Shown: one piece after another, positions 23,962 to 64,000 of the stretch
How positions within the stretch are numbered: the first letter of the stretch is position 1
Layout of the letters: every line of letters begins with the position of its first letter
DNA from: Escherichia coli
GTDB lineage: Bacteria > Pseudomonadota > Gammaproteobacteria > Enterobacterales > Enterobacteriaceae
Reading direction: 5' to 3' (one strand)
Assembly (NCBI RefSeq): GCF_001677475.2
Contig: NZ_CP015229.1
Length of the DNA stretch: 64,000 nucleotides
Translations under genes and position numbers: made by a program
Notes under the pieces: generated by a model
Told to the model about the DNA's origin: nothing
Database searches by the model: none
The model's input: the letters and a program-made list of their open reading frames with translations, nothing else

Positions 23962-23974
23962 TTGTACGAGCTAA

Positions 23975-27536: not shown

Positions 27537-27790
27537 GCTCTTCTCCTAATTTCATTTTTGAATTTGGAGTCCGGGTCATGATGTATAACTATTTCCTGAC
27601 CAGACCAAACTGGCGCTAAGATTACTCACGAAAAAAGGATTAATCCTAAAGATTAGGTGAAATAACACAAAAGTTTCTGTAAGTGAGAACTTGAGGTTTT
27701 TTATTAACACATCAGGATCGCAAGTTGATATCATGAAAAGATAAACATTCAATGTTTACAATAGATTGCGTGACGTCTTCTGGTTAAATT
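27537..27790 (-). promoter_or_regulatory. cadBA promoter region (Pcad), expected to hold the CadC binding sites
   Basis: AT-rich intergenic region immediately upstream of cadB and downstream of cadC; individual sites not resolved by eye. Confidence 0.45.
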
Positions 27791-27794
27791 TATG

Positions 27795-27827
27795 TAATAA
27801 AAATTATGCGGCAAATAAATTGCCGCA
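27795..27827 (-). terminator. Putative terminator downstream of cadC
   Basis: Hairpin TGCGGCAA-ATAAA-TTGCCGCA (27807..27827) followed on the minus strand by a T-rich run. Confidence 0.5.
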
Positions 27828-27901
27828 ACATATTATACCAATAAAAACATACAAAAACTCAACAACAAATATTCCCGGGCATGAATCAACCCGGGATTTG
27901 C

Positions 27902-30056: not shown

Positions 30057-30132
30057 TGGTGCCCGGACTCGGAATCGAACCAAGGACACGGGGATTTTCA
30101 ATCCCCTGCTCTACCGACTGAGCTATCCGGGC
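30057..30132 (-). tRNA. pheU: tRNA-Phe (anticodon GAA), 76 nt
   Basis: Reverse complement reads GCCCGGATAGCTCAGTCGGTAGAGCAGGGGATTGAAAATCCCCGTGTCCTTGGTTCGATTCCGAGTCCGGGCACCA, the canonical E. coli tRNA-Phe. Confidence 0.95.
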
Positions 30133-41587: not shown

Positions 41588-41821
41588 GTAGGTTCTCCCT
41601 AACCATTTCTCAATTAAATAATTAATTTTAATTTATAAGCCAGATAAATGGGCTTGGTAGTAATAGTTGTTAAAATAACATAAATAGCCGTGCTCACTCT
41701 ATATAAACAGAAAAGAAAGGTTAATTATTGGTGTTGGTTATATAAAAAGTAATAACAGCAATGTATATGAATAATTAAAGGTTATGCACCGTGCAAAGAT
41801 TAAACTTCCCTGTTTAATCAG

Positions 41822-42850
41822 TTACTGCTGGCGTAGCTGGAGATCCAGGGGCGTTTTGCTGGGTTCGCCGCCAATTTCTCGCGCCAGTTTAGGCACCAGA
41901 TATCCCGACACCAGTGTCAGCAACTCACGCATAATCTGCCGTGCTTCGTCATCACTCACCATAAAATGCGCCGCGCCCTGTACTTTATCGAGCACATGCA
42001 GGTAATACGGCATCACGCCCGCATCGAACAACGCATTACTCAGGTTTGCCAGCGTTTGCGCGTTATCGTTCACACCACGTAACAGAACGCTCTGGTTCAG
42101 CAAAGTAACGCCTACCCGGCGCAACTTAGCCATCGCCTGACGGAATGTTTCATCTACCTCATTGGCATGGTTGATGTGATTCACCAGCAAGATTTGCAGC
42201 GTAGAATGTGAAAAGCGTTCAACCAGCGCATCTGTGATGCGTGCCGGGATCACAATCGGCAGACGGCTGTGAATCCGCAGACGTTTGATATGCGGGATGG
42301 CTTCCAGTTGTGTGAGCAACCAGTCCAGCTCGTGATCTTTCGCCATCAGCGGATCGCCGCCGGAGAAAATCATCTCGTCCAGTTCCGGATGCGCAGCAAC
42401 ATACTCAAGTGCAGTTTGCCAGTTACGCTTGTTGCCCTGATTTTCGGCATAGGGGAAGTGGCGACGGAAGCAATAACGGCAATTTACCGCGCAGCCGCCT
42501 TTGACCAGCAAAAGCGCCCGGTTGTGGTATTTATGCAACAAACCAGGCACTACGCTGTGCTGTTCTTCCAGTGGGTCGGTGGAGAATCCGGGCGCGACGA
42601 CAAACTCATCTTGCGAGGTAATTACCTGACGCAAAAGCGGATCGTTCGGATTGCCTTTCTCCATGCGATCGATAAATGAGCGGGGCACACGCAGGGCAAA
42701 CAGCTTTTTGGCGCTGCGTCCGGCCAACAGTTTTTCGTCCGCGTCTATATTCAAAAGACGCAGAAGTTCATCAGGATCGGTCACAACATCGGCAAGTTGC
42801 GTTAACCAATCTTCTCTGGATGGGGTATTTAGGGTTACAATATGCGCCAT
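41822..42850 (-). CDS. epmB: EF-P beta-lysylation enzyme EpmB (lysine 2,3-aminomutase-like radical SAM), 342 aa
   Basis: Protein MAHIVTLNTPSREDWLTQLADVVTDPDELLRLLNID... with CxxxCxxC motif (CAVNCRYC); recognised as EpmB/YjeK. Confidence 0.92.
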   Translation of the reverse strand: MAHIVTLNTPSREDWLTQLADVVTDPDELLRLLNIDADEKLLAGRSAKKLFALRVPRSFIDRMEKGNPNDPLLRQVITSQDEFVVAPGFSTDPLEEQHSVVPGLLHKYHNRALLLVKGGCAVNCRYCFRRHFPYAENQGNKRNWQTALEYVAAHPELDEMIFSGGDPLMAKDHELDWLLTQLEAIPHIKRLRIHSRLPIVIPARITDALVERFSHSTLQILLVNHINHANEVDETFRQAMAKLRRVGVTLLNQSVLLRGVNDNAQTLANLSNALFDAGVMPYYLHVLDKVQGAAHFMVSDDEARQIMRELLTLVSGYLVPKLAREIGGEPSKTPLDLQLRQQ

Positions 42851-42891
42851 TTTGTGGCTTAGCTACCAATTAACAAATTTCAGAGGGCCTT

Positions 42892-43458
42892 ATGGCAACG
42901 TACTATAGCAACGATTTTCGTGCTGGTCTTAAAATCATGTTAGACGGCGAACCTTACGCGGTTGAAGCGAGTGAATTCGTAAAACCGGGTAAAGGCCAGG
43001 CATTTGCTCGCGTTAAACTGCGTCGTCTGCTGACCGGTACTCGCGTAGAAAAAACCTTCAAATCTACTGATTCCGCTGAAGGTGCTGATGTTGTCGATAT
43101 GAACCTGACTTACCTGTACAACGATGGTGAGTTCTGGCACTTCATGAACAACGAAACTTTCGAGCAGCTGTCTGCTGATGCAAAAGCAATTGGCGATAAC
43201 GCTAAATGGCTGCTGGATCAGGCAGAGTGTATCGTAACTCTGTGGAATGGTCAGCCGATCTCCGTTACTCCGCCGAACTTCGTTGAACTGGAAATCGTTG
43301 ATACCGATCCGGGCCTGAAAGGTGATACCGCAGGTACTGGCGGCAAACCGGCTACCCTGTCTACTGGCGCTGTGGTTAAAGTTCCGCTGTTCGTACAAAT
43401 CGGCGAAGTCATCAAAGTGGATACCCGCTCTGGTGAATACGTCTCTCGCGTGAAGTAA
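42892..43458 (+). CDS. efp: Translation elongation factor P, 188 aa
   Basis: Protein [46 protein letters not shown]... recognised as EF-P, including the modified-Lys loop PGKGQAF. Confidence 0.97.
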
Positions 43459-43466
43459 TGCGGTTG

Positions 43467-43490
43467 TGGTGCGGCCTGCAGGCTGCACCA
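43467..43490 (+). terminator. Hairpin downstream of efp (possible terminator)
   Basis: Stem TGGTGC...GCACCA enclosing the palindrome GCCTGCAGGC; weak T-tract. Confidence 0.4.
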
Positions 43491-43509
43491 TCACTTATTC
43501 AGGTCAGAG

Positions 43510-43635
43510 ATGATGAAACGCCTTATCGTTCTTGTTTTGCTTGCCAGCACGCTGCTCACGGGCTGTAACACCGCTCGCGGTTTCGGCGAAGACATCAAAC
43601 ATCTCGGCAACTCCATCTCTCGCGCTGCCAGCTAA
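43510..43635 (+). CDS. ecnA: Entericidin A small lipoprotein, 41 aa (absent from the ORF track)
   Basis: ATG 43510 to TAA 43633..43635 encodes [41 protein letters not shown] (signal peptide plus lipobox LTGC). Confidence 0.85.
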
Positions 43636-43745
43636 TTTTTCTTCTCTTCCGAAAAATCATCAGATTTCCGTCATTTTTGGCGATGTTGTCTATTATTAAT
43701 TTGCTATAGGCAAACATAAATAACATTACCTAAAAGGAAGACGTT

Positions 43746-43892
43746 ATGGTGAAGAAGACAATTGCAGCGATCTTTTCTGTTCTGGTGCTTTCAACAGTAT
43801 TAACTGCCTGCAACACCACGCGTGGCGTTGGTGAAGACATTTCTGATGGCGGTAACGCGATTTCTGGTGCAGCAACGAAAGCGCAGCAATAA
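43746..43892 (+). CDS. ecnB: Entericidin B small lipoprotein, 48 aa (absent from the ORF track)
   Basis: ATG 43746 to TAA 43890..43892 encodes [48 protein letters not shown], paralogous to EcnA, with a GGAAG SD. Confidence 0.85.
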
Positions 43893-43900
43893 GCAATAAC

Positions 43901-43935
43901 GGTACGACAGCTGTGTCGTGCCGTTTGTTTTCTCT
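43901..43935 (+). terminator. Putative ecnB terminator
   Basis: Stem GGTACGAC...GTCGTGCC (43901..43922) followed by GTTTGTTTTCTCTG. Confidence 0.55.
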
Positions 43936-44004
43936 GCGATAGTCACAAAGGTAATAGTTGAAATTCCCCTGCCACCTGGCAAAATATCCGTTCAACCATC
44001 AGCT

Positions 44005-44049
44005 TTGCAGGACGACCTGCAAACGCGTCTTTTCACCGGGGACGGCCCC
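44005..44049 (+). promoter_or_regulatory. Candidate guanidine-II (mini-ykkC) riboswitch in the gdx 5' leader
   Basis: Two hairpins each closed by an ACGR tetraloop: TTGCAGG-ACGA-CCTGCAA (44005..44022) and GGGG-ACGG-CCCC (44038..44049), 15 nt apart, 19 nt upstream of the gdx ATG; this is the mini-ykkC architecture typically found upstream of SugE/Gdx-type exporters. Confidence 0.65.
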
Positions 44050-44067
44050 AATTCTCCGGAGCCTGAT

Positions 44068-44385
44068 ATGTCCTGGATTATCTTAGTTATTGCTGGTCTG
44101 CTGGAAGTGGTATGGGCCGTTGGCCTGAAATATACCCACGGCTTTAGTCGTTTGACGCCGAGTGTTATTACTGTGACGGCGATGATTGTCAGTATGGCGC
44201 TACTTGCCTGGGCGATGAAATCGTTACCAGTAGGGACGGCTTATGCCGTGTGGACGGGTATTGGCGCAGTCGGCGCGGCCATCACCGGCATTGTACTGCT
44301 CGGTGAGTCCGCTAACCCGATGCGCCTGGCGAGTCTGGCGTTAATCGTATTGGGGATTATTGGTCTGAAACTCAGCACTCATTAA
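44068..44385 (+). CDS. gdx: Guanidinium exporter Gdx (SugE; SMR family), 105 aa
   Basis: ORF 43918..44385 recognised as SugE/Gdx; the recognised N-terminus [25 protein letters not shown] starts at ATG 44068 with a GGAG SD. Confidence 0.92.
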
Positions 44386-44915
44386 CTACCGGGTTGCTGT
44401 ACCCAAATAAACTTACTGACATCAAACCCTTCCCGGGTCGCGACTGCCAGCATTTCCTGTTTCACTTCGTCAGAAATGGTTGGCGTGCGGGAGAGTATCC
44501 ACAGGTAGTCGCGGTCCGGACCGCAAACCAGCGCATGGCGGTATTCCCGATCGAGCGCAATAACGTTATAACCGCCATAGAAAGGACCAAAGAATGACAC
44601 TTTCAGCGCAGCGCGAGTTGGTGCGCCGGTAAAGTATGCTTTCCCTTCACTCTGTTGCCACATTTCTCTGTCAGGGTTATAGCCTTTATTAATGACATTC
44701 AGGCCGCCGTCATCCCGCAGGCTGTATGTTGCGGTGACTTTTTCCAGTCCACGTTCAAAGCGGTGATCAAAACGGGCAATCTCATACCAGGTACCGAGAT
44801 AGCGTTTAGCATCGAAATTATTCACTACGGTCACGCCACGGGGCGGCGTAGGAGAACTGCAGGCAACGACCAGAAATGCAGCTGTCGCTGCGGCAACGAG
44901 AGGGAGCAGGCGCAT
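44382..44915 (-). CDS. blc: Outer-membrane lipocalin Blc, 177 aa
   Basis: Protein [49 protein letters not shown]... recognised as Blc; convergent with gdx and overlapping it by 4 nt. Confidence 0.92.
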
Positions 44916-44959
44916 AAATGTTTCCTTACTGGTTTTTTTCTAAGTGTAGATGACAGCAA

Positions 44960-44993
44960 GGAAAAGCGGAGAAAAGGTCCGAAAATTCGGACC
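44960..44993 (-). terminator. Rho-independent terminator downstream of ampC
   Basis: Hairpin GGTCCGAA-AA-TTCGGACC (44976..44993), followed on the minus strand by TTTTCTCCGCTTTT. Confidence 0.6.
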
Positions 44994-45003
44994 CGATGAA
45001 ATT

Positions 45004-46559
<1,556 letters not shown>

Positions 46560-46569
46560 CTCAGGCTCC

Positions 46570-47702
<1,133 letters not shown>

Positions 47703-47710
<8 letters not shown>

Positions 47711-49511
47711 TCGCCTTCTCCTTCTTATTGGCTGCTTCCGCCTTATCGGCTGCATCCGCTTCGCCACCGTAAACACGTTTAGCTGGCGGCAGCGTAGTAA
47801 TCTTCACGTCGCTGTACTCCAGGCGAGTCGTGCCATCAGCATCGCGGAAGGCGAGGGTGTGTTTGAGGAAGTTGACGTCGTCACGCTCGGTGCAACCTTC
47901 GTCCAGACGCTGGTGTGCGCCGCGGGACTCTTTACGTGCCATTGCGGAGTGCGCCATACATTCAGCAACGTTCAGACCGTGGCCCAGTTCAATGGTGTAG
48001 AGCAGGTCGGTGTTGAACACGCTGGAGGTGTCGGTGATGCGCACGCGCTTGAAGCGTTCCTGCAGCTCAGCCAGCTTGTCGATGGTTTTCTGCATCAGTT
48101 CCGGCGTACGGTAGATACCGCAACCTTCTTCCATAGCCAGGCCCATTTCGTCGCGGATCTTCGCCCAGTTTTCGCCGCCATCCTGGTTAACCAGATCTTT
48201 CAGACGTTGTTCAACGCCAGCTGCCTGCGCTTCAATTGCCGCTTCGTTGCCATTACCGGCAGTTGCTGCACGCTCTGTCGCTTGTTCACCGGCCAGACGG
48301 CCGAAGACCACCAGTTCCGCCAGGGAGTTAGAACCCAGACGGTTTGCACCGTGCAGACCAACAGAGGAACATTCACCCACGGCGAACAGACCTTTAATGC
48401 GGGTTTCACAGTTCTGATCGGTTTCGATACCGCCCATGGTGTAGTGTGCGGTCGGACGTACCGGAATCGGTTCTTTAACCGGATCGACGCCAACGTACGC
48501 TTTCGCCAGTTCGCAGATGAACGGCAGACGTTCATGCAGTTTTTTCTCGCCGAGGTGACGCAGGTCGAGATAAACCACATCACCACGCGGTGTGGAGATG
48601 GTGTTGCCTTTACGCCATTCGTGCCAGAAGGCCTGAGAAACTTTGTCGCGTGGACCCAGTTCCATATACTTGTTTTTCGGCTCGCCCAGCGGAGTTTCCG
48701 GGCCCATGCCGTAATCTTGCAGATAACGGTAGCCATTTTTGTTGACCAGAATACCGCCTTCACCACGGCAGCCTTCGGTCATCAGGATACCGGAACCTGG
48801 CAGACCGGTTGGGTGATACTGAACGAATTCCATGTCACGCAGCGGAACGCCGTGGCTTAGCGCCATACCCATACCGTCACCGGTAACGATGCCGCCATTG
48901 GTATTGTAACGATAAACGCGACCCGCACCGCCGGTAGCCATAACGACCGCGTTAGCACGGATCTGCACCAGCGTGCCTTCCATCATGTTCATTGCTACCA
49001 GGCCGCGAACATGACCATCATCAACCAGAATATCCAGCACGAAATGTTCGTCAAAACGCTGGATCTGCGGGAATTGCAGAGAGGTCTGGAACAGCGTGTG
49101 CAGCATATGGAAGCCGGTCTTATCGGCGGCGAACCAGGTACGCTCGATTTTCATGCCGCCGAAGCGACGTACGTTGACGCTACCATCCGGGCGACGGCTC
49201 CATGGGCATCCCCACAGTTCCAGTTGGGTCATTTCGGTGGGGCAGTGGTGGACGAAATAATCCACGACATCCTGCTCACACAACCAGTCGCCACCCGCGA
49301 CTGTATCGTGAAAGTGATATTCGAAGCTGTCATGATCCTGCGCGACAGCGGCGGAGCCCCCTTCTGCAGCAACGGTATGGCTACGCATCGGGTATACTTT
49401 TGAGATTAGTGCGATTTTTGCATTTGGATTTGCCTGCGCGGCAGCAATTGCAGCACGTAATCCCGCGCCACCGGCGCCTACAATGGCAAGATCGGCTTGA
49501 AAGGTTTGCAC
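47703..49511 (-). CDS. frdA: Fumarate reductase flavoprotein subunit FrdA, 602 aa
   Basis: Protein [38 protein letters not shown]... recognised as FrdA; start codon is GTG. Confidence 0.95.
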
Positions 49512-49643
49512 GACATTCCTCCAGATTGTTTTTATCCCACAGCCCCGTACTTCAGGGTAAGTGCCTGAAAGTTACGGTCTGCGAACGCTATTCCACTGCT
49601 CCTTTATAGGTACAACAGTATAGTCTGATGGATAAGTCTGAAA

Positions 49644-49657
49644 TTTGACGAGATCGA
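49644..49657 (-). promoter_or_regulatory. Putative FNR binding site of the frdA promoter
   Basis: Minus strand reads TCGATCTCGTCAAA, resembling the FNR consensus TTGAT-N4-ATCAA, about 135 bp upstream of the frdA GTG. Confidence 0.5.
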
Positions 49658-49835
49658 TTTTTTTAGTGCGCAAGAGGGCTAAATTATCACTGAAGATGAT
49701 TAATTTAATTACTAAACCATCAGATCGTGCTTTTTTTAGTCACTGCCCACCGTTGTTTGATTCCTGCGTAAAATTTGTCTCGCCGTCGCGTTGCGAGTAG
49801 ACTTCGTGCCCTTGTCAAAAACTGGAGATTTAACT

Positions 49836-50813
49836 ATGAGCGAAACGGCATCCTGGCAGCCGAGCGCATCCATTCCTAACTTATTAAAACGCGCGGCGAT
49901 TATGGCGGAGATCCGTCGTTTCTTTGCCGATCGTGGAGTGCTGGAGGTGGAGACGCCTTGTATGAGCCAGGCGACGGTAACCGATATTCATTTGGTCCCG
50001 TTTGAGACACGTTTCGTTGGCCCCGGGCATTCGCAGGGGATGAATCTCTGGTTAATGACCAGCCCGGAATACCATATGAAACGCCTGCTGGTTGCCGGTT
50101 GTGGGCCGGTATTCCAGCTGTGCCGCAGCTTCCGTAATGAAGAGATGGGGCGTTATCACAACCCTGAGTTCACTATGCTGGAGTGGTATCGACCGCACTA
50201 TGATATGTACCGGTTGATGAACGAGGTGGACGATCTCTTACAACAGGTGCTGGACTGCCCGGCAGCAGAAAGCCTTTCTTATCAACAAGCTTTCTTGCGT
50301 TATCTGGAAATTGACCCACTCTCTGCCGACAAAACGCAACTGCGGGAAGTGGCAGCGAAACTGGATTTGAGCAATGTTGCTGATACCGAAGAAGACCGCG
50401 ACACGTTGCTACAATTGCTGTTTACCTTTGGCGTAGAGCCAAATATTGGTAAAGAAAAACCGACCTTTGTGTACCACTTTCCAGCCAGCCAGGCATCACT
50501 GGCGCAAATCAGTACCGAAGATCATCGGGTCGCTGAACGCTTTGAGGTTTATTATAAAGGTATTGAGCTGGCGAATGGTTTCCATGAATTGACGGATGCC
50601 CGTGAGCAGCAACAACGCTTTGAACAAGATAACCGTAAGCGCGCGGCGCGCGGTTTGCCGCAGCACCCCATTGACCAGAATCTGATTGAAGCCTTGAAAG
50701 TCGGTATGCCTGACTGTTCCGGCGTGGCATTAGGTGTTGATCGTCTGGTGATGTTGGCGCTGGGCGCGGAGACACTGGCTGAAGTCATCGCCTTTAGCGT
50801 TGACCGGGCATAA
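49836..50813 (+). CDS. epmA: EF-P-lysine lysyltransferase EpmA (PoxA/GenX; LysRS paralogue), 325 aa
   Basis: ORF 49791..50813 recognised as EpmA; the recognised N-terminus [27 protein letters not shown] starts at ATG 49836. Confidence 0.92.
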
Positions 50814-51031
50814 TTCTGAAAAATTACTGAATTAACAGCGAAGAATGGCGTGATAAGCGCCATTCTGTAGCATATGTTTTCATTTTTCTGTTAAAGGCCA
50901 CAATTTAAGACTGGATATTTGATATCATCCAGGTATCAATTCTGTATTGGTTTTTACGCTGCCCGCTCAATGTTGGGCAGTGCAGTTCAGTGGGCGCGTT
51001 TTATACACGCGCTGAAATGAAGGATGGTTTC

Positions 51032-52534
51032 ATGCCTCACACGATAAAAAAGATGAGTCTGATAGGACTCATATTGATGATCTTTACTTCCGTATTTGGA
51101 TTTGCCAATAGCCCATCGGCTTATTACTTAATGGGTTATAGTGCGATTCCCTTTTATATATTTTCTGCATTGTTATTCTTTATTCCATTCGCCTTAATGA
51201 TGGCTGAAATGGGCGCTGCGTATCGCAAAGAAGAAGGAGGTATCTATTCCTGGATGAATAATAGTGTCGGACCACGTTTTGCCTTCATTGGTACGTTTAT
51301 GTGGTTTTCCTCTTATATCATCTGGATGGTGAGCACCTCCGCTAAAGTTTGGGTACCGTTCTCAACATTTCTCTACGGTAGCGACATGACCCAGCACTGG
51401 CGTATTGCCGGACTGGAACCTACGCAGGTGGTTGGTCTGCTGGCAGTGGCATGGATGATTCTGGTCACCGTCGTTGCTTCAAAAGGGATTAATAAAATTG
51501 CCCGCATTACTGCGGTGGGCGGTATTGCAGTAATGTGCCTGAATTTAGTATTACTGTTAGTAAGCATTACTATTTTGTTATTAAATGGTGGGCATTTCGC
51601 GCAGGATATTAATTTCCTGACATCACCGAACCCAGGATATCAATCCGGTCTGGCGATGCTATCGTTTGTGGTATTTGCCATTTTTGCCTATGGCGGAATT
51701 GAAGCGGTTGGTGGTCTGGTCGATAAAACGGAAAATCCAGAAAAGAACTTTGCCAAAGGTATTGTTTTTGCCGCTATTGTTATTTCAATCGGTTATTCGC
51801 TGGCAATATTTTTATGGGGCGTCAGCACAAACTGGCAGCAGGTATTAAGTAATGGTTCCGTTAACCTCGGCAATATTACCTATGTGCTGATGAAGAGCCT
51901 CGGGATGACGCTGGGTAACGCACTGCATTTGTCACCTGAAGCGTCATTGTCGCTGGGCGTATGGTTTGCGCGTATTACCGGACTTTCGATGTTCCTCGCT
52001 TATACCGGTGCGTTCTTTACGCTTTGCTATTCACCGCTGAAAGCCATCATCCAGGGGACGCCGAAAGCGTTGTGGCCGGAACCGATGACGCGCCTGAATG
52101 CGATGGGGATGCCGTCTATCGCCATGTGGATGCAGTGCGGGTTGGTTACTGTCTTCATCCTGCTGGTTTCGTTTGGTGGCGGTACCGCATCGGCGTTCTT
52201 TAACAAGCTGACGCTGATGGCGAACGTGTCTATGACGCTTCCTTACCTGTTCCTCGCGCTGGCTTTCCCATTCTTTAAAGCACGTCAGGATCTCGACAGA
52301 CCATTTGTGATTTTCAAAACGCGTATGTCGGCAATGATTGCGACGGTGGTTGTCGTTCTGGTGGTGACATTTGCGAACATCTTCACCATCATTCAGCCTG
52401 TGGTTGAAGCCGGAGACTGGGACAGCACATTGTGGATGATTGGCGGCCCTGTCTTCTTCTCGCTGTTAGCGATGGCGATATACCAGAACTATTGCAGTCG
52501 CATGGCGAATAAACCTGAGTTAGCTCTCGACTGA
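51032..52534 (+). CDS. yjeM: Putative APC-superfamily transporter YjeM, about 500 aa
   Basis: ORF 50990..52534 is a polytopic membrane protein recognised as YjeM; start assigned to ATG 51032 (AAGGATGG SD); in-frame alternatives are GTG 50990 and ATG 51053. Confidence 0.8.
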   Translation: MPHTIKKMSLIGLILMIFTSVFGFANSPSAYYLMGYSAIPFYIFSALLFFIPFALMMAEMGAAYRKEEGGIYSWMNNSVGPRFAFIGTFMWFSSYIIWMVSTSAKVWVPFSTFLYGSDMTQHWRIAGLEPTQVVGLLAVAWMILVTVVASKGINKIARITAVGGIAVMCLNLVLLLVSITILLLNGGHFAQDINFLTSPNPGYQSGLAMLSFVVFAIFAYGGIEAVGGLVDKTENPEKNFAKGIVFAAIVISIGYSLAIFLWGVSTNWQQVLSNGSVNLGNITYVLMKSLGMTLGNALHLSPEASLSLGVWFARITGLSMFLAYTGAFFTLCYSPLKAIIQGTPKALWPEPMTRLNAMGMPSIAMWMQCGLVTVFILLVSFGGGTASAFFNKLTLMANVSMTLPYLFLALAFPFFKARQDLDRPFVIFKTRMSAMIATVVVVLVVTFANIFTIIQPVVEAGDWDSTLWMIGGPVFFSLLAMAIYQNYCSRMANKPELALD

Positions 52535-52684
52535 TCATATGAAATCCTGCAACTCATCGTCTCTCCGGCGATGAGTTGTCAGGAAGTAATGCGTATGGAT
52601 GATACTCTCCAGGGCCGGTGATAACTGAAGATGATGTTAAGCTGCTAAATGAGCCACGTTGACATCATTTGGCAGCTTCATGCA

Positions 52685-55600
52685 TTACAAACTTCCCGCC
52701 TGACGACCTTTGCCCGCAGACGTCAGCGTTCTCCCCGTTTGCTTACCGTTGAGGCTTTCCAGACGCATCTGGAAGGGCGGGAATGGCATATCGATACCGT
52801 GGGCGTGGAAGCCTGCCAGAATCAGCTGGTGGATCTCATGGCGTAGCGGCATACGGTGACCCATCTCAGCGGCGTAAATACGCAGCTCGAAAATCTGAAT
52901 CCCCTGTTGCAGATCCACCAGGAAGACTTCCGGTGCCGGGTTGTCGATCACCAGCGAGCAGCGACGCGCTGCGGTGAGCAGGATTTCCGTCACTTCTTCA
53001 CTGTTGGCATCGGCAGGAGCCGGAATCGTCAATACCACGCGCGTGACCGAGTCAGAGAGCGACCAGTTGATAAACTGCTCGGTAATAAACGCCTTGTTCG
53101 GCACGATAATTTCTTTGCGGTCCCAGTCGCTGATGGTGGTGGCGCGGGTGTTAATTTTTGTCACGCTACCGGTGAGATCGCGGATCGTCACCGTATCGCC
53201 AATGCGAATCGGTTTTTCGAACAGGATGATCAGGCCAGAGATAAAGTTGGCGAAAATTTCCTGCAAACCAAAACCGAGACCAACACCGAGCGCGGCGACC
53301 AGCCACTGCAATTTCGACCACTCAATACCAATCATTGAGAAGCCGACCAGCCCGCCAATCAGCATCAGCAGATATTTGGTGATGGTGGTGATGGCGTAAC
53401 CCGTACCCGGCGTTAAATCCAGGTGCTGCAAAATCGCCAGTTCCAGCAGCGCGGGCAGGTTGCGCACCAGCTGCGTGGTGATGATAAATACCAGAATGGC
53501 AATCAGCACCGCACCGAGGGTAATCGGCTCCAGACTTTCCACGCCCTGTACCGTGGAAGTGACATCCCACAGCGAAATATTTTCGAGGAAGCCGAAAGCG
53601 GAATGGATTTCTGACCACAGCACAATGACCGAAAGCAGGGCGATCAACATCAAAATTGAGCGCACCAGCCGCAAGGATTGCGCACTGATGGCATCGAGAT
53701 CGACTTCGCTTTCATCGACTTCAATTGCCCCTTCCGGGCTACTGTGATGATGCGCTTCCTCTTCGCCACGTGCACGTTGCGCTAACATCTCTGCCCGGCG
53801 ATGCTTCGCCCGGTCAAACGCCAGCCTGCGGCGTTGGATCAGCATCCAGCGGCGGATAACGTGATAAACCACCAGTAGCAGGAACCAGATGGCAACCGAG
53901 GTTTCAAGCCTCGCTAACAGTGCCTGCGCCGTTGCCAGATAACCCACCGCCGACGCCAGAATAGCAACCAGTGGCGCGCCAATCATCATGTTCCACAGCA
54001 TATGGTTGGTAATGTTGTCGCCGCTACCCTCTTTGTTGAGATACAGCGGGATACCGGCCTTTTTCAGGCTGAGGGTGACCACCGCCAGCGCACCGCAAAT
54101 GAGGATAAAGCAAAGCCGTCCCAGCGAACCGGAAAATTCGCGGTCGTCGAGATTATCGAACATCATCAGCGCCATAATCAGCGGCACAATAAGCCCGATG
54201 CTCATCAGGTAGTAGCGCATCCCACGGGAAACCCGTTCGCGTGGCCAACCAAAATGAGCGATAAACAAGCCGTTCGGGCGGGCAAAGGTGGCGCAAATCA
54301 TCACTACCCACAGCAGCGGCACGGTGGCTGTTACGCCATCACCAATCGCGACCGCCAGCGGATAAGGCCACGCCTCGCGCAAGCCGTAACCCAGCGTCAT
54401 CCACAGCACTGGCAGCGGTGACGCGACGAGAATCGACCAGAAAAGAGTGCGTAACGTCAGCCAGAAGTGATCCTGAGTCACTTTGCCGACTTTCGCCGCC
54501 GAACGTTCAAGAAAACGGGTGAAATATCGGCGCGAGTAAATACTGCAACCGACCAGAATCAACGCGCCAAACAGCGGCAAAATCGTCTCTTTGCTGGTCA
54601 GCATCATCACACTGGCTTTGCCCAACTGACTGAAGGTGTCCAGCGAAATGAGACGACGCAGATCCTGGGCGATTTCCAGCGGCCAGGCGATGGTCATCGG
54701 ACGTACGTCAGAGGTCCAGAACAGATAGCGGTGCGTCGCTTCATTCACCTCTTTCAGCGCATCCTCCAGTTGCCCGTTGGAGACTTTCAGCTTGGTCAGT
54801 TCCAGTAGTAGCGTGTCGCCACCCTGCAACAATGAGTTCAGCAACTCACGCTGAGTGCGTAGCTGTGCTTCGAGAATACGGTTTTGCTCGGCAGTCAGCG
54901 GCTGACCGTCGGCCTGATGAATTTGCCTTAGCTGCGGCTGTTTATTAAGCAGATCCTCATAACGTAACCGTTGCACACGCAACTGCGCCATTTCGGTATC
55001 AAGCTGTTGTGGTTTTGGCATTTCCGGCAGCCGTGCCACCTGCGCCCGCAACGCTTCGCCGAGCAGATTGGACGATCCCAGCCATTGCGACTGTTCACGC
55101 AGCGTATTCAACGCCTGCCGGACCTGTAACGTCTGGCTGGCAGCCTGACGCTGTTGCGAGGCAACGAGATCCATCCGCTGCGCCTGTTGATTCAGCGCTG
55201 CCGATAGTTCGCGGTTTATTTTGAATTGCGCGACGATATCTTTCGGCAAATCGGCACTGTTTTCTGCCAGCAATTCGGTACTTTCCAGCGCCCGCTCCGC
55301 CTCAAGCTGACGTTGGCTGTTCAACTGATTACGTAAGGTCTGCAAATACGCATCCAGTTGCTGGCTCTCTTTTTCCGCCAGCTCTGAGCGTAAGCGCGCT
55401 AATTCCTGGCGGTTATTGGCGGACAGCTGCGCCAGTTCCAGTTCATCGACGAGCGCTTTCAGGCGTGCGGAGTCAGACTGCAACGCGAAATTTTGTGCCT
55501 GATTGAGCGGGGAATTGCCGGTAAGCGTCCCCAGGCGGCGCTCGATTTCATTTAACTGACGGCGGGCATCGGTTTGCTGTTGCGGCAGTTGATTCAGCGA

Positions 55601-56008
55601 ATCGGCAATCTCGCGGGCGCGTTCCTGCTCTTGCTGGGCCTGACGGCTTTTATCCAGCAACTGGCTGCTGACCTGGAGAATTTCCTGATTCAGCGCGTCG
55701 GTAGACATTCCCGGTGACACGCTGCGCGGCTCGTCACGCATGTTGTTTAATTGCGCGCGCAGAGTAGCGGAGAGTTTCGGATAATTATCAATGACTTCTT
55801 GATATTGCTTGATGCGCTCAAGGGAACCTTTCCGTTCCTCAAGCGCATTTAAGGCAGACTGGAGCGCCTCTACGACTTCCGGTTGCGCGGGTTTCGCCGC
55901 TTTTGCCTGCTCCAGTTCTTGTGAGATTTGTTTGCTATCGGGGGCCGTCGCGGCGTACGCCCCCCAACTGAGGCACCAGGCCATCAGAAAAGTGATAATC
56001 AGGCGCAC
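52685..56008 (-). CDS. mscM: Miniconductance mechanosensitive channel MscM (YjeP), 1107 aa
   Basis: Protein MRLIITFLMAWCLSWGAYAATAPDSKQISQELEQAKAAKPAQ... with a long coiled-coil periplasmic domain and MscS-like C-terminus. Confidence 0.92.
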   Translation of the reverse strand: MRLIITFLMAWCLSWGAYAATAPDSKQISQELEQAKAAKPAQPEVVEALQSALNALEERKGSLERIKQYQEVIDNYPKLSATLRAQLNNMRDEPRSVSPGMSTDALNQEILQVSSQLLDKSRQAQQEQERAREIADSLNQLPQQQTDARRQLNEIERRLGTLTGNSPLNQAQNFALQSDSARLKALVDELELAQLSANNRQELARLRSELAEKESQQLDAYLQTLRNQLNSQRQLEAERALESTELLAENSADLPKDIVAQFKINRELSAALNQQAQRMDLVASQQRQAASQTLQVRQALNTLREQSQWLGSSNLLGEALRAQVARLPEMPKPQQLDTEMAQLRVQRLRYEDLLNKQPQLRQIHQADGQPLTAEQNRILEAQLRTQRELLNSLLQGGDTLLLELTKLKVSNGQLEDALKEVNEATHRYLFWTSDVRPMTIAWPLEIAQDLRRLISLDTFSQLGKASVMMLTSKETILPLFGALILVGCSIYSRRYFTRFLERSAAKVGKVTQDHFWLTLRTLFWSILVASPLPVLWMTLGYGLREAWPYPLAVAIGDGVTATVPLLWVVMICATFARPNGLFIAHFGWPRERVSRGMRYYLMSIGLIVPLIMALMMFDNLDDREFSGSLGRLCFILICGALAVVTLSLKKAGIPLYLNKEGSGDNITNHMLWNMMIGAPLVAILASAVGYLATAQALLARLETSVAIWFLLLVVYHVIRRWMLIQRRRLAFDRAKHRRAEMLAQRARGEEEAHHHSSPEGAIEVDESEVDLDAISAQSLRLVRSILMLIALLSVIVLWSEIHSAFGFLENISLWDVTSTVQGVESLEPITLGAVLIAILVFIITTQLVRNLPALLELAILQHLDLTPGTGYAITTITKYLLMLIGGLVGFSMIGIEWSKLQWLVAALGVGLGFGLQEIFANFISGLIILFEKPIRIGDTVTIRDLTGSVTKINTRATTISDWDRKEIIVPNKAFITEQFINWSLSDSVTRVVLTIPAPADANSEEVTEILLTAARRCSLVIDNPAPEVFLVDLQQGIQIFELRIYAAEMGHRMPLRHEIHQLILAGFHAHGIDMPFPPFQMRLESLNGKQTGRTLTSAGKGRQAGSL

Positions 56009-56029
56009 GTCAGCGTTTCCTTTGATGGA

Positions 56030-56998
56030 TTAGACCTGGTCTTTTTTGTCGTCAACCAATGGGCTGGCGTCGTGTTCTGCTTCGATCTCTTCAGCAGGAA
56101 GCGGGGCGGGTTCAGCGTCTGGCGTAACAAAGGTTTCGGTAGATACTGCCAGCGGCTGGCCAATTTTCGTGACAGACAGGCTTTCCAGTTGCTCAACCAG
56201 ATTCACTTTACCCGGTGCAAACAGGTTGATAACGGTGGAACCGAGTTTAAAGCGACCCATTTCCTGGCCTTTCAGCAGTGCCACAGAACCGTCGTTTTCC
56301 CCGGCAGGCCAGGTCCAGCGCTTGATGATACCTTCGCGCGGCGGCGTAATGGTGCCCGCCCAGACCGTCTCAATGCTGCCTACAATCGTCGCCCCGACCA
56401 GAATCTGCGCCATTGGGCCAAATTCGGTATCGAACAGGCAGATCACGCGTTCGTTACGGGCAAACAGATTCGGCACGTTCTGAGCGGTGAGATGGTTAAC
56501 GGAAAAGAGATCGCCCGGCACGTAGATCATCTCACGCAGAATACCGTTGCACGGCATGTGTACGCGGTGGTAGTCACGCGGGGAGAGGTAAGTGGTCACA
56601 AACGTACCGTTGCGGAACAGGTCCGCCATCAGATAGTTGCCTGCCAGCAGGGCTTCGAGGCTGTAGTTGTGGCCTTTGGCTTGCAGGATTTTATCTTCTT
56701 CGATTTTACCCAACTGGCTGATAACGCCATCGGCAGGCATAACCAGTACATTCGGATCGGTATCGATTGGGCGTACTTCGTCACGCAGCGGACGGACAAA
56801 GAATTCGTTAAAGGTGCGGTAGCTGGCGGTATCCGGCTTTTGCGCCTCTTTCATGTCGACCTTGTAGTATTTAACGAACAGATCGATAACCAGTTTTGTC
56901 AGCCATCCTGCCCGCTTGCTTGCGCCCCAACCCGCCAGGCGAGTAAGCCATAGTTTCGGCAGAATGTACTGTAGCGAAAGTTTAAATGAATTTAACAA
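56030..56998 (-). CDS. psd: Phosphatidylserine decarboxylase proenzyme Psd, 322 aa
   Basis: Protein [33 protein letters not shown]... recognised as Psd, including the LGST self-cleavage motif. Confidence 0.95.
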
Positions 56999-57095
56999 GG
57001 TAGCCTCCAGGCCATTGTTTTGTCGTTCCTGATCCGGCCTACATGCCGGATCCTGAAAAAAAAGGGGACGATTCTAACGACGGTTAGCTTAATTG

Positions 57096-58148
57096 TCAGT
57101 CATCCGTATCAGAAAAGTTTTTACGCGTTTTTACCTGCGCCATGCTTTCCAGAATACGGTGATAGTTTTCGAAACGGGTTTCCGCGATTTTTCCTTCCTC
57201 AACCGCTTCCCGGATAGCGCAGCCCGGATCGGTATCGTGTTTGCAATCGCGATATTTACACAGACCTAAGTAGTCATGGAATTCGACAAAGCCCTGAGTG
57301 ATTTGTTCCGGCTCCAGGTGCCAGAGGCCGAACTCACGCACTCCTGGGGAGTCAATCACATCACCGCCGTGCGGGAAGTGATACAGCCGAGCGGCGGTCG
57401 TGGTGTGCTGACCGAGACCCGAGTTGTCAGAGACATCGTTGGTCAGGATCTCTTTTTGCAGCCCCAGCAACGCGTTCAGCAGGCTGGATTTACCAACGCC
57501 AGACTGCCCGGCAAAAATGCTGATGCGCCCGGTCAACGCCTCTTCCAGCGGTTTCAGCCCATCCTGAGTATGGCTGGAAACCATCAATACGCGATAACCG
57601 ATATTGCGGTAGATATCCATCTGCTCGTTGACGAATGCCATGCCTTCGTCGTCCAGCAGGTCTATCTTGTTGAGCACAATAATCGGCTCAATCTGCAAGG
57701 TTTCGCAGGCCACCAGGTAACGGTCGATAATATTGAGCGACAGCTCCGGCAAAATGGCGGAGACAATGACAATCTGGTCGATGTTGGCTGCAATAGGTTT
57801 CACGCCGTCGTAGAAATCCGGACGCGTCAACACCGAGGTGCGCTCATGCACCGCTTCCACGATCCCTTTGACATTTACGCCTTCCGCCGCCGGTTTACCC
57901 GGACGCCAGACTACGCGGTCGCCGGTCACCAGCGAACGGATGGTACGGCGAATATTGCAGCGGTGAACGTCGCCATCGGCGGATTCCACATCAGCGTGCA
58001 TACCAAAGCGGCTGATGACGATACCTTCATCAGGCTCGCCAAACAGATTGTCGTCGTAGTCGGGCTTCTCCTTAGACGTTTTAAGACGACGCTGGTGATT
58101 GGCGTTCACGCGGCGCTGCTGGCCTTTGGAGAGTTTATTTTTACTCAA
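57096..58148 (-). CDS. rsgA: Ribosome small-subunit biogenesis GTPase RsgA (YjeQ), 350 aa
   Basis: ORF 57096..58181 recognised as RsgA; the recognised N-terminus (M)[20 protein letters not shown] corresponds to a TTG start at 58148..58146. Confidence 0.88.
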
Positions 58149-58242
58149 TCGTACAGACTCCTGGTCGCCCCTGATGGGCAAAACATCTATGATACACGCA
58201 ATTGTGGATCAATATAGTCACTGTGAATGGGTGGAAAATAGC

Positions 58243-58788
58243 ATGAGTGCCAATGAAAACAACCTGATTTGGATCGATCTTGAGATGACCGGTCTGGATC
58301 CCGAGCGTGATCGCATTATTGAGATTGCCACGCTGGTGACCGATGCCAACCTGAATATTCTGGCAGAAGGGCCGACCATTGCAGTACATCAGTCCGATGA
58401 ACAGCTGGCGCTGATGGATGACTGGAACGTGCGCACCCATACCGCCAGCGGGCTGGTAGAGCGTGTGAAAGCGAGCACGATGGGCGATCGTGAAGCTGAA
58501 CTGGTAACGCTCGAATTCTTAAAACAGTGGGTGCCTGCGGGAAAATCGCCGATTTGCGGTAACAGCATCGGCCAGGATCGTCGCTTCCTGTTTAAATATA
58601 TGCCGGAGCTGGAAGCCTACTTCCACTACCGTTATCTCGATGTCAGCACGCTGAAAGAGCTGGCGCGCCGCTGGAAGCCGGAAATTCTGGATGGTTTTAC
58701 CAAGCAGGGGACGCATCAGGCGATGGATGATATCCGTGAATCGGTGGCGGAGCTGGCTTACTACCGCGAGCATTTTATCAAGCTGTAA
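58243..58788 (+). CDS. orn: Oligoribonuclease Orn, 181 aa
   Basis: ORF 58099..58788 recognised as Orn; the recognised N-terminus [23 protein letters not shown] starts at ATG 58243. Confidence 0.95.
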
Positions 58789-58914
58789 ATTTTTTCCTGG
58801 TCACGTAAGCGCCGTAATCCACTTGCGGTGGCGTGATTTTGACGCTAAATTGAACGTCTTGCCGATAATTTCAGCACTTGAGATAAAAACTCAAAAAAAA
58901 ATTTTTTAGGGGGG

Positions 58915-58942
58915 TTGCAGAGGGAAAGATTTCTCGTATAAT
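58915..58942 (+). promoter_or_regulatory. Putative sigma-70 promoter of the tRNA-Gly operon
   Basis: -35 TTGCAG (58915..58920), 16-bp spacer, -10 TATAAT (58937..58942), followed by a GC-rich discriminator GCGCCTCCC and preceded by an A/T-rich UP-like tract (58882..58908). Confidence 0.6.
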
Positions 58943-58999
58943 GCGCCTCCCGTAACGACGCAGAAATGCGAAAATTACGAAAGCAAAATTAAGTAGTAC

Positions 59000-59075
<76 letters not shown>

Positions 59076-59232
59076 AAATTTGAAAAGTGCTGCAAAGCAC
59101 AGACCACCCAATCGCAGTATTTCGAATTGCGACAAGGCGGCAACTGAACGAATCCTTGGGAGCTTACAAAAGTAAGTGACTAAGGTGAGTGAAGGCAGCC
59201 AAGGCAGTAGCGGTTCGAAAGACGAAGATTAA

Positions 59233-59308
<76 letters not shown>

Positions 59309-59343
59309 AAATTTGAAGGTGCTGTAAAGCACAGACCACCCAA

Positions 59344-59419
<76 letters not shown>

Positions 59420-59429
59420 AATTCTTCTC

Positions 59430-59690
59430 TCAATAAAATATCCACAGCGACGCGATGCGTTATTGCTGGTTTTTGTTGTCTCTGACAAACTCTTGTAAAC
59501 AGAGTTATCCACAGCCTCAGTCCGTAATCTTAATTTCAAAGAAACTTCGCACGGTGAATAGTATTTTTTTAACCTATTGATAGGTAAGTTAAAAATTAAG
59601 ATTCCGTTTTGTCGAGTCGATCACTTGACGATTTTATTCGTCTTGAATTGCAATGCGTTTTTATTTTTATTCACAAGCTGTGGATGAATC
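59430..59690. other. datA: DnaA-box cluster with central IHF site, consistent with the datA DnaA-inactivation/titration locus
   Basis: Four DnaA-box 9-mers: ATATCCACA (59438..59446), consensus TTATCCACA (59505..59513), TTATTCACA (59667..59675) and, inverted, TCATCCACA (59679..59687); an IHF-consensus site lies between them; position between the tRNA-Gly array and the queG 3' end. Confidence 0.65.
59570..59582. promoter_or_regulatory. IHF consensus site within the DnaA-box cluster
   Basis: TAACCTATTGATA is the reverse complement of the IHF consensus WATCAANNNNTTR, with an adjacent upstream T-tract (59563..59570). Confidence 0.5.
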
Positions 59691-60826
59691 AGGCGTCACG
59701 CGGTAACCCTTTTTCAATCACCCGAACCAGACGCTGTTTTTTCGGCAATTGCACTTCGACTATGCACGCATTTCGCCTCTCGATTTGCTGCGCCATCGCC
59801 CACGCTATGTGCTCATCAAGAAGTGGGTGCTCACCTTTGCGACTCTCCAGCGCCGCCAGAATCGTTTCATCCCAGGGGGCATTGCCTAATGCCACGGCGA
59901 TATTACGCAGCCAGCGCAGGTGACCTATACGGCGAATCGCCGATCCTTCCGTGACTTTTAAAAACTTCTCTTCGCTCCAGGCGAATAACTCAATGAGTTC
60001 CGGTGCGTGTAGCGGCTTACGCGGGCTGAAATCGTCTTCTGTAGTGAGTTGCGAATAGCGATTCCACGGGCAGATAAGCTGGCAGTCATCGCAACCGTAA
60101 ATACGGTTTCCCATTAACGGTCGCAACTCTTCCGGGATCGCCCCTTCCAGTTCGATGGTGAGATAAGAGATACAGCGGCGAGCATCGACGGTATATGGCT
60201 CGACGATGGCACCGGTCGGGCAAATCGTCATACAGGCCACGCATTTACCGCATCCTTCCTCGACTGGTTGATCCACGGGCAGCGGAATATCGACCAGCAA
60301 TTCGCCTAAAAAGAAGAACGAACCGGCCTCGCGATTGAGGATAAGTGAGTGCTTACCTGTCCAGCCGAGCCCAGCTTTTTCAGCTAACGGGCGCTCGAGA
60401 ATAGGCGCAGAATCGACAAACGGTCTAAAATTCAGCGAAACACAATGTTGCTGAATCATCTCGCCCAGCTTTTTGAGTCGGTTGCGCAGAAGCTTGTGAT
60501 AGTCACGGCCCAGCGCATAACGGCTAACATAGCCGAGTTTGGGGTTTTTCAGCGTGCTGGCAAATGCGGCGTTAGCAGGAAGGTAATTCATCCGCACGCT
60601 GATCACGCGCAGCGTACCGGGCAATAACTCATGGGGGCGAGCGCGCAGCATACCGTGACGCGCCATCCAGTCCATTTCGCCGTGGTATTGTTTGTCCAGC
60701 CATGCTTGCAGTTTTGGCTCGGACTCGCTGAGATCGGTATCGGTAATACCTACCTGCTGAAAGCCCAGTTCCAGCCCCCACTGTTTAATTTTTTGCGCTA
60801 ACTGATTGAGATCGAGGGGCTCTGAC

Positions 60827-60828
<2 letters not shown>
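59689..60828 (-). CDS. queG: Epoxyqueuosine reductase QueG (YjeS), 379 aa
   Basis: ORF 59689..60936 recognised as QueG (ferredoxin-like Cys clusters CGKCVACMTICP and CDDCQLICPWN); the recognised N-terminus MSEPLDLNQLAQKIKQWG starts at ATG 60828..60826. Confidence 0.88.
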
Positions 60829-62807
<1,979 letters not shown>

Positions 62808-62825: not shown

Positions 62826-64000
62826 ATGATGTATCGCATCAGAAATTGGTTGGTAGCGACGTTGCTGCTGCTGTGCGCGCAGGTGGGTGCCGCGACGCTC
62901 TCTGATATTCAGGTTTCTAACGGTAATCAACAGGCGCGGATAACGTTAAGTTTTATTGGCGATCCTGACTATGCATTTAGCCATCAAAGCAAACGCACCG
63001 TGGCGCTCGATATCAAACAAACGGGCGTGATTCAGGGGCTGCCGTTGTTGTTCAGCGGTAATAATCTGGTGAAGGCGATTCGCTCTGGAACGCCAAAAGA
63101 TGCGCAAACGCTGCGGCTGGTGGTCGATCTTACCGAAAATGGTAAAACCGAAGCGGTGAAGCGGCAGAATGGCAGCAATTACACCGTCGTCTTTACGATT
63201 AATGCCGATGCGCCACCACCGCCTCCGCCGCCGCCCGTGGTTGCTAAACGTGTTGAAACGCCTGCGGTTGTCGCACCGCGCGTCAGCGAACCGGCGCGTA
63301 ATCCGTTTAAAACCGAGAGCAACCGGGCTACGGGTGTCATCAGTAGCAATACGGTGACGCGTCCGGCAGCGCGCGCGACGGCTAACACTGGCGAAAAAAT
63401 TGTCATCGCCATTGATGCCGGACACGGTGGTCAGGATCCTGGCGCTATCGGCCCTGGCGGTACGCGGGAGAAAAATGTCACCATCGCCATCGCGCGTAAA
63501 TTGCGTACTTTGCTCAATGATGATCCGATGTTTAAGGGCGTTTTAACCCGTGACGGGGATTACTTTATCTCGGTGATGGGGCGCAGCGATGTGGCACGTA
63601 AGCAAAACGCCAATTTCCTCGTGTCGATTCACGCTGATGCCGCACCGAACCGCAGTGCGACTGGCGCTTCCGTATGGGTGCTCTCTAACCGTCGCGCCAA
63701 CAGCGAAATGGCCAGCTGGCTGGAGCAGCACGAGAAACAGTCGGAGCTGCTGGGCGGGGCGGGTGATGTGCTGGCGAACAGTCAGTCTGACCCCTATTTA
63801 AGCCAGGCGGTGCTGGATTTACAGTTCGGTCATTCCCAGCGGGTAGGGTATGATGTAGCGACCAGTATGATCAGTCAGTTGCAACGCATTGGCGAAATAC
63901 ATAAACGTCGGCCAGAACATGCCAGCCTTGGCGTTCTGCGTTCGCCGGATATCCCATCAGTACTGGTCGAAACCGGTTTTATCAGCAACAACAGCGAAGA
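62826..64000 (+). CDS. amiB: N-acetylmuramoyl-L-alanine amidase AmiB, N-terminal 391 codons; continues past the window end
   Basis: ATG 62826 opens a frame with no stop in the window: [43 protein letters not shown]...[14 protein letters not shown]..., recognised as AmiB; 18 nt after tsaE. Confidence 0.93.

Follow-up and report, generated by a model that had tools for sequence, protein, structure and literature searches.

The polyproline tract at the head of the AmiB interdomain linker in Escherichia coli: EF-P-dependent stalling and variation among lineages

Results

amiB and the position of its proline tract

The window, that is, the whole 64 kb stretch of E. coli DNA analysed here, ends within amiB and contains, upstream of it, the genes for elongation factor P (EF-P) and for two enzymes of its activating pathway (Table 1). 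The amiB open reading frame matched the NCBIfam AmiB equivalog model NF007751 with 867.8 bits, against a cut-off of 532, over residues 1–391 of the 445-residue model, and the AmiC and AmiA models scored far below their own cut-offs. The equivalog match above its cut-off shows that the gene name amiB is right. The hydrophobic N-terminus of the translation is a putative export signal whose cleavage site is inferred, and in the AlphaFold model of AmiB a helix covers residues 2–15, ahead of the first AMIN strand (residue 24). AmiB has the expected domain plan of an AMIN domain, a linker and an Amidase_3 catalytic domain; the Pfam limits were read on a full-length E. coli AmiB orthologue, in which Amidase_3 (PF01520) spans residues 194–413.

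The last β-strand of the AMIN domain comprises residues 118–127, and strands up to residue 127 are modelled with pLDDT above 90. The linker lies between the Pfam matches to AMIN and Amidase_3 and has no predicted regular structure; its 10-residue pLDDT means run 93, 70, 58, 54, 48, 44 and 56 before rising to 95 at the catalytic domain. The model was built from a 45-sequence alignment with a mean pLDDT of 82.6, and its confidence in the proline run itself is only about 70. Since the run starts two residues past the last AMIN strand, Pro130–Pro137 form the head of a flexible linker of about 64 residues. In line with this, the equivalent linker of about 40 residues in Pseudomonas aeruginosa AmiB was flexible and not built in the cryo-EM structure of FtsEX-EnvC-AmiB (PMC10214136).

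Table 1 Features of the window, in window positions
Feature	Position	Strand	Description
cadC PPP	29075-29083		second documented EF-P client in the window
epmB	41822-42850	-	EF-P β-lysylation enzyme (lysine 2,3-aminomutase type); NCBIfam TIGR03821, 532 bits
efp	42892-43458	+	elongation factor P, which acts in trans to relieve the stall; NCBIfam TIGR00038/NF001810
epmA	49836-50813	+	EF-P-(R)-β-lysine ligase; NCBIfam NF006828, 604 bits
amiB	62826-64000	+	N-acetylmuramoyl-L-alanine amidase AmiB; codons 1-391 of 445, gene cut by the window end
Putative N-terminal export signal	62826-62894	+	hydrophobic N-terminus of the translation
AMIN domain	62904-63206	+	peptidoglycan-binding/septal-targeting β-sandwich; Pfam PF11741, residues 27-112
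Interdomain linker	63207-63398	+	proline- and valine-rich, residues 128-191; the tract is its first segment
Proline-codon tract	63213-63236	+	CCA CCA CCG CCT CCG CCG CCG CCC, AmiB Pro130-Pro137
CCT-CCG codon pair	63222-63227	+	CCU-C type sequon, putative frameshift site by sequence match
(CCG)3CC	63225-63235	+	sole perfect trinucleotide micro-repeat within the tract
Amidase_3 catalytic domain	63405-64000	+	from residue 194; truncated at the window end

Sequence and uniqueness of the tract

The original prediction had been that amiB carries eight consecutive proline codons of mixed type, and the codon list, the frame and the gene name were all borne out. The tract begins 387 nucleotides, or 129 codons, after the first letter of the amiB ATG (63213-62826) and is thus in frame; its eight CCN codons go beyond the at least three successive in-frame proline codons that make an EF-P stalling motif. 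When both strands were searched, (CCN)8 occurred once in the 64 kb window, and it appeared in 0 of 100 dinucleotide-preserving shuffles of the window. Of the eight matches to (CCN)4 in the window, five fell inside the amiB tract, against an expectation of 1.35. These results indicate that the proline run of amiB is no chance event. The codons are indeed mixed: the longest perfect unit is (CCG)3, and Tandem Repeats Finder (TRF) reported the tract region only at its minimum score of 30, with a period of 9 and 2.4 copies.

The CCT-CCG pair within the tract matches a CCU-C type sequon that has been reported to be prone to +1 ribosomal frameshifting (PMC8129111). A +1 shift at the tract would lead into the reading frame 63169-63357 and to its stop at 63357, giving a truncated product of the AMIN domain plus junk. 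Open reading frames on the minus strand over the tract, such as a poly-glycine frame at 63179-63412, were rejected, since they arise only from the CCN repeat of a plus-strand gene that is itself well supported. No RNA family was found at the tract in Rfam.

The amiB allele of the window

The eight-proline tract of K-12 AmiB (residues 130–137) lies in the same gene at the same position and has the same length. The flanking residues are also the same, except that the residue just before the run (position -1) is alanine in the window and valine in K-12. The K-12 codons are CCG CCA CCG CCT CCT CCG CCG CCC, so that the two alleles differ at the first and fifth proline codons.

From 41000 to 61000 the window is 98.6% identical, end to end, with many complete E. 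coli chromosomes, which marks it as E. coli-like chromosome. For amiB itself the similarity is lower, and among 5425 genomes the highest identity is 97.0%. In comparison with the closest E. coli allele, 34 of 35 differences fall within 62948–63521 and 31 of the 35 are synonymous, and over the 264 nt around the tract no complete E. coli genome exceeds 93.5% identity. This segment of amiB looks like an imported or an old allele under purifying selection. The divergence leaves the tract unaffected, with eight prolines as in K-12.

Variation of the tract among relatives and within E. coli

Relatives of the N-terminal half of AmiB were compared. In Enterobacteriaceae homologues, uninterrupted runs of 4, 5, 6, 7, 8, 9 or 11 prolines stand directly after the motif FTINAD[AVET]; by source name, their carriers belong to Escherichia, Citrobacter, Salmonella, Klebsiella, Kluyvera, Raoultella, Cedecea, Cronobacter and Enterobacter. 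Interrupted natural forms were also found (PPPPSPPPP, PPSPPP, PQPPPP and PLPPPP), and the Serratia and Yersinia entries lack a proline run. Among 121 diverse AMIN-amidase representatives (clusters at 50% identity with 120 or more residues before the catalytic GHGG motif, runs being counted in this upstream part), the longest run was two prolines or fewer in 109, and only three had a run of at least four. Because so many representatives have no run above two, the proline run is no requirement of the enzyme family. By this comparison it is a young, lineage-specific and length-labile trait of enterobacterial AmiB.

Polyproline is generally selected against (PMC5811046). Despite this counter-selection, many enterobacterial genera have kept a proline run at precisely this junction, and the pause itself could thus be useful.

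Within E. coli, three sequenced forms of the tract were found: P8 (K-12 and others), P6 (EC-10 and E57) and PPSPPP followed by methionine (NRG 857C, Ecol_867 and SK0189). A 264-nt query around the tract was run against 5425 complete E. coli genomes, of which 870 fell in the band of 80–90% identity. Of 60 rows sampled at even spacing, all those at or below 89.6% identity were 6 nt shorter and all those at or above 91.5% were of full length. We estimate that the tract is two codons shorter (PPPPPP or PPSPPP) in about 16% of complete E. coli genomes and is P8 in about 84%, a figure that derives from the break in the identity bands, the 60-row sample and the sequenced examples and is not an exact count. 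Since the length class coincides with the allele lineage, the two lengths represent an old polymorphism and not frequent switching.

Alignment of the P8 form (...CCT CCG CCG CCG CCC) with the P6 form (...CCT CCG CCA) shows that the two differ by CCG CCG within (CCG)3, and the length change of two codons between E. coli alleles probably took place in the (CCG)3CC micro-repeat. The loss of CCG CCG is the expected product of replication slippage, and the remark on slippage is thus partly right when viewed over evolutionary time. The suggestion of a slippage hotspot is weakly supported, however: in-frame length variants do exist, but they follow allele lineages, and (CCG)3 is the sole perfect repeat. 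All alleles retrieved were in frame. The tract lacks the make-up of a phase-variable simple-sequence contingency locus: its codons are mixed, (CCG)3 is its longest unit, and its lengths fall into two in-frame classes. Repeat-driven instability was also considered and rejected, the TRF call being at threshold only.

EF-P-dependent stalling at the tract

Polyproline stalls are relieved by modified EF-P, and their strength varies with context (PMC4176338). The genome encodes EF-P and its activating pathway, with efp, epmB and epmA all of full length in the window. The epmC gene (yfcM) lies outside the window, and a SILAC study indicates that it is dispensable (PMC4176338).

Published ribosome profiling already covers the tract. 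The run of eight proline codons in amiB is the longest in E. coli, and a sharp footprint peak was seen there in the wild type in 2015 (PMC4402525). Sieber et al. 2024 provided asymmetry scores for E. coli BW25113 in their Supplementary Data 3(B), defined as the ribosome occupancy before a motif divided by that after it, and these cover six overlapping PPP positions and a PPV position of the amiB tract (PMC11611912). In the wild type the scores were 1.00–1.24 at the amiB tract and 2.6 at the cadC PPP. They rose to 6.7–10.5 and 10.8, respectively, in Δefp, were 1.0–2.9 and 2.6 in ΔefpL, and were 3.8–6.7 and 10.3 in Δefp with EfpL overproduced (PMC11611912). The difference between the Δefp and wild-type scores makes the amiB tract a documented EF-P-dependent stall in K-12. 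With EF-P present, the tract leaves the downstream ribosome density undepressed, as the K-12 score of about 1 shows.

The original prediction had called the tract a strong EF-P-dependent stalling motif and AmiB a candidate EF-P client. These scores agree with the former and with AmiB being a client, but as a candidate it is not new, because the stall is already known and published (PMC4402525, PMC11611912). The comparison of an efp mutant with the wild type by ribosome profiling that had been proposed as a check is likewise available for K-12 and shows pausing at the tract in Δefp (PMC11611912). Beyond confirmation this matters little, as the amiB tract is a textbook-style polyproline stall already measured in efp mutants. 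What the present comparison adds is that the run is specific to Enterobacteriaceae and labile, that about 16% of complete E. coli genomes have a shorter form, that the length variants are in frame and follow allele lineages, so that the site is not hypermutable, and that the proximity to efp reflects conserved gene order.

The profiled allele was that of K-12, with valine at position -1; the window allele has alanine there and opens with CCA CCA. From the same eight-proline run as in K-12, we infer that the window allele would stall as well. APPP was a weak context in reporter assays (PMC4176338); within the tract each later PPP is preceded by proline.

A full-text literature search for AmiB together with EF-P or polyproline returned, among main texts, only the 2015 footprint paper (PMC4402525), and amiB is unmentioned in the supplements of Elgamal 2014, Starosta 2014 and Qi 2018. 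No protein-level measurement of AmiB in efp mutants was found in the accessible literature. In 2013, AmiB was reportedly used in in vitro translation assays in papers on EF-P.

Gene neighbourhood of amiB

The distance between amiB and efp had been put at 20 kb, and it measured 19.8 kb from the efp stop codon to the start of the tract; the identities of efp, epmA and epmB were corroborated by NCBIfam equivalogs. The tract lies 12.4 kb past epmA and 20–21 kb from epmB. The listed open reading frame of epmA starts at 49791 and encodes 340 residues, with the profile aligning from residue 16; the gene is annotated with 978 nt in E. coli. The gene order in annotated E. coli is epmB, efp, ecnAB, sugE, blc, ampC, frdDCBA, epmA, yjeM, mscM, psd, rsgA, orn, glyVXY, queG, nnr, tsaE, amiB, mutL. 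In the annotated record, 19 CDS and three tRNA genes, on both strands and in several divergent units, separate efp from amiB.

The immediate neighbours are much closer. In the window, amiB starts 18 nt after the end of tsaE. The mutL gene starts 9 nt past the amiB stop in E. coli records and is itself beyond the window end. Thus amiB belongs to the gene string nnr-tsaE-amiB-mutL, and in all E. coli records retrieved mutL comes directly after it. The adjacency of amiB and mutL is kept in a distant, 67%-identical relative that lacks the proline run (in 4.4 kb contigs, which do not reach efp).

The window contains two genuine PPP-containing genes, cadC and amiB. Since the K-12 proteome has 79 PPP occurrences (PMC11611912 supplement) and the window makes up about 1.3% of a chromosome of 4.6–5 Mb, about one such gene is expected per window, and by our own estimate the Poisson probability of two or more is about 0.2. 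Because the tract is restricted to Enterobacteriaceae, the gene order is far older than the tract. The proximity of efp and amiB is conserved enterobacterial gene order; it looks coincidental and is compatible with chance.

Discussion

Interpretation of the tract

We consider it very probable that the tract is a lineage-specific polyproline head of the AmiB linker, with its EF-P dependence a by-product and not a dedicated regulatory device. The tract would head the linker that joins the septal-targeting AMIN domain to the catalytic Amidase_3 domain of periplasmic AmiB, where, judged by the chemistry of polyproline, it would most likely serve as a stiff, extended spacer of the polyproline-II type at the exit of the AMIN domain. 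In translation, successive Pro-Pro peptide bonds are slow to form, and ribosomes would therefore stall at the tract without β-lysylated EF-P, which is supplied by the products of efp, epmA and epmB, all encoded in the window. The run would have arisen, and would continue to change its length, through small in-frame insertions and deletions in the CCN repeat.

Selection could instead have acted on the pause. Slowing of ribosomes once the signal peptide and the AMIN domain had emerged might aid Sec targeting or ordered handling of the domains, or might keep the AmiB copy number low and responsive to the state of EF-P, a role proposed for the stall in CadC. Polyproline is enriched at domain boundaries against its overall depletion (PMC5811046), and the tract lies two residues past the end of a domain. 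In addition, the run has been retained at the same junction across many genera, the footprint peak is seen even in the wild type (PMC4402525), and the window allele opens with a pair of CCA codons, which depend on a limiting tRNA and strengthen pauses in weak contexts; such a stall does tune the copy number of CadC (PMC8129111). The variation among natural alleles fits poorly with a selected pause, however: the length drifts from 4 to 11, interruptions such as PPSPPP, PQPPPP and PLPPPP occur, the run is shorter or interrupted in about 16% of E. coli, and most AmiB relatives function without any run. The wild-type asymmetry score of about 1 also speaks against it. Moreover, since AmiB is exported and folds in the periplasm, as is well established, a pause for folding in the cytosol would bring no obvious benefit. 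We regard a programmed pause as unlikely.

Two further readings take up what was said of the surroundings and the repeat character of the tract. That the neighbourhood shared with efp, epmA and epmB is meaningful, with amiB lying near these genes for co-regulation, co-inheritance or local availability of EF-P, seems very improbable to us. Two documented clients (cadC and amiB) and the genes efp, epmB and epmA in one 64 kb window invite such over-reading, yet the numbers give it no support: two PPP genes against about one expected lie within chance, and the intervening genes and divergent units, the conserved partners of amiB being tsaE and mutL, and the youth of the tract relative to the gene order all argue otherwise. 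EF-P is diffusible and acts on all ribosomes, and the proximity of its gene thus has no mechanistic meaning. It is extremely improbable that the tract is a mutational or recoding hotspot, whether as a contingency site that would switch AmiB on and off or alter its length at high frequency or as a programmed +1 frameshift site. The in-frame variants (P8 against P6 in E. coli, and others between genera), the (CCG)3 micro-repeat, the frameshift-prone CCT-CCG match (PMC8129111) and several database fragments that go out of frame at or just past the tract would accord with a hotspot. These fragments, however, come mostly from metagenome or read-archive assemblies and are broken at various points, as expected of assembly or sequencing errors, and every fetched allele is in frame. 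The mixed codons yield no more than a TRF repeat of minimum score, the sample of 60 of the 5425 genomes contains two lengths only, cleanly split by allele identity, and the +1 product would be truncated, ending at 63357.

The P8, P6 and PPSPPP forms and the range from 4 to 11 prolines could tune how far the synthesis of AmiB, and hence the splitting of septal peptidoglycan, depends on EF-P and EfpL activity, which we think distinctly unlikely. If it were so, lineages with the B2-like PPSPPP form would uncouple the separation of daughter cells from translational stress more than K-12-like strains do. In any case, P8, P6 and PPSPPP exist in nature as a set of alleles with which one may ask whether selection favours polyproline pauses at domain boundaries or only tolerates them.

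Comparison with known systems

The PPP of CadC, the founding EF-P client, resembles the amiB tract in being a polyproline motif of a non-cytoplasmic or membrane-associated protein that needs modified EF-P, and the Δefp scores are of similar size (10.8 against 6.7–10.5). In contrast to the eight prolines of AmiB, CadC has three, its stall is documented to determine how many copies of a regulator are made, with consequences for physiology (PMC8129111), and its score is already 2.6 in the wild type, where that of amiB is about 1. No dosage-tuning role for AmiB is documented in the searchable papers.

Arrest peptides such as SecM and MifM have specific sequences that interact with the ribosomal tunnel, and their stall remodels the mRNA and controls a downstream gene. 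The amiB tract is like them in that the nascent chain stalls inside the open reading frame of an exported protein, but its stall results from generic Pro-Pro chemistry and is resolved by a general factor, and some 930 nt separate it from the amiB stop codon downstream; from the gene layout, no mechanism that would couple it to mutL is apparent.

In the proline-rich region of TonB, long series of X-Pro dipeptides form a rigid spacer across the periplasm. AmiB is like this type of spacer in that a segment dense in proline joins two functional domains of an envelope protein, and for this segment an extended polyproline-II conformation is expected. The AmiB run differs from it in being a short homopolymer that gives way to a mixed P/V/A/R linker, and in a length that varies freely among close relatives.

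cadC and amiB as polyproline-encoding genes

The gene cadC is the founding EF-P-dependent gene. Among the real genes of the window, only cadC and amiB encode a PPP motif, and cadC lies approximately 13.5 kb from efp, on the opposite side of it from amiB. The asymmetry score of the cadC PPP motif, the ratio of ribosome occupancy before the motif to that after it, was 2.6 in the wild type versus 10.8 in delta-efp (PMC11611912).

Mosaic structure and natural variants of amiB

Thirty-four of the 35 differences between the window amiB and the closest E. coli amiB were located within 62948-63521 (574 nt, the 5' half of the gene), with a single difference in the remaining 479 nt that the window covers. 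Synonymous changes made up 31 of the 35 differences. No complete E. coli genome (n=5425) exceeded 93.5% identity over the 264 nt surrounding the tract, whereas the identity of the neighbouring 20 kb was 98.6%. Judged from these sequence comparisons, the window amiB is a mosaic allele. Since the differences are crowded into 62948-63521 and local identity is low relative to that of the flanking sequence, the pattern suggests either recombinational import or an old allele of an under-sampled Escherichia lineage.

A natural disruption of amiB was observed in E. coli strain D3 (NZ_CP010140.1, locus L006). There, the C-terminal part of the gene, from approximately codon 161, adjoins a frameshifted IS1 and mutL, and the N-terminal piece containing the AMIN domain and the tract lies approximately 48 kb off, separately annotated as 'AMIN domain-containing protein'. 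This break is in keeping with a dispensable AmiB in the presence of the other amidases. In addition, many metagenome and read-archive fragments among the protein database hits to AmiB (P0049-P0052, P0061-P0063, P0065, P0080) stop at the tract or lose frame just downstream of it, the +1 frame being read in several of them. These most likely represent assembly or sequencing breaks in the GC-rich repeat rather than biology; P0049 is an exception in its source, a 5.1 Mb NCBI contig.

Genomic neighbourhood

The ORF of nnr, for NAD(P)H-hydrate repair, shares 29 nt (62346-62374) with the beginning of tsaE, and the end of tsaE is separated from the amiB start by 18 nt, indicating that nnr-tsaE-amiB is a tightly packed transcription unit. 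Six lysine-related genes (lysU, cadA, cadB, cadC, epmB and epmA) are clustered in the window, probably reflecting historical gene order; lysU also matched the EpmA models. The Guanidine-II riboswitch at sugE and the tRNA genes are already known.

Coordinates of features in the window
Feature	Position	Strand	Description
lysU	within 20705-29440		lysyl-tRNA synthetase
cadA	within 20705-29440		lysine decarboxylase
cadB	within 20705-29440		lysine/cadaverine antiporter
cadC	27902-29440	(-)	PPP at 29075-29083, motif SPPPIPE
tRNA-Phe(GAA)	30057-30132	(-)	adjoins cadC
epmB	41822-42850	(-)	lysine 2,3-aminomutase type
Guanidine-II (mini-ykkC) riboswitch	44004-44050	(+)	Rfam RF01068, 49.3 bits; precedes sugE, in the interval from efp/ecnAB to blc
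epmA	49836-50813	(+)	LysRS paralogue
glyVXY	59000-59419	(+)	three tandem tRNA-Gly(GCC) genes, between orn and queG
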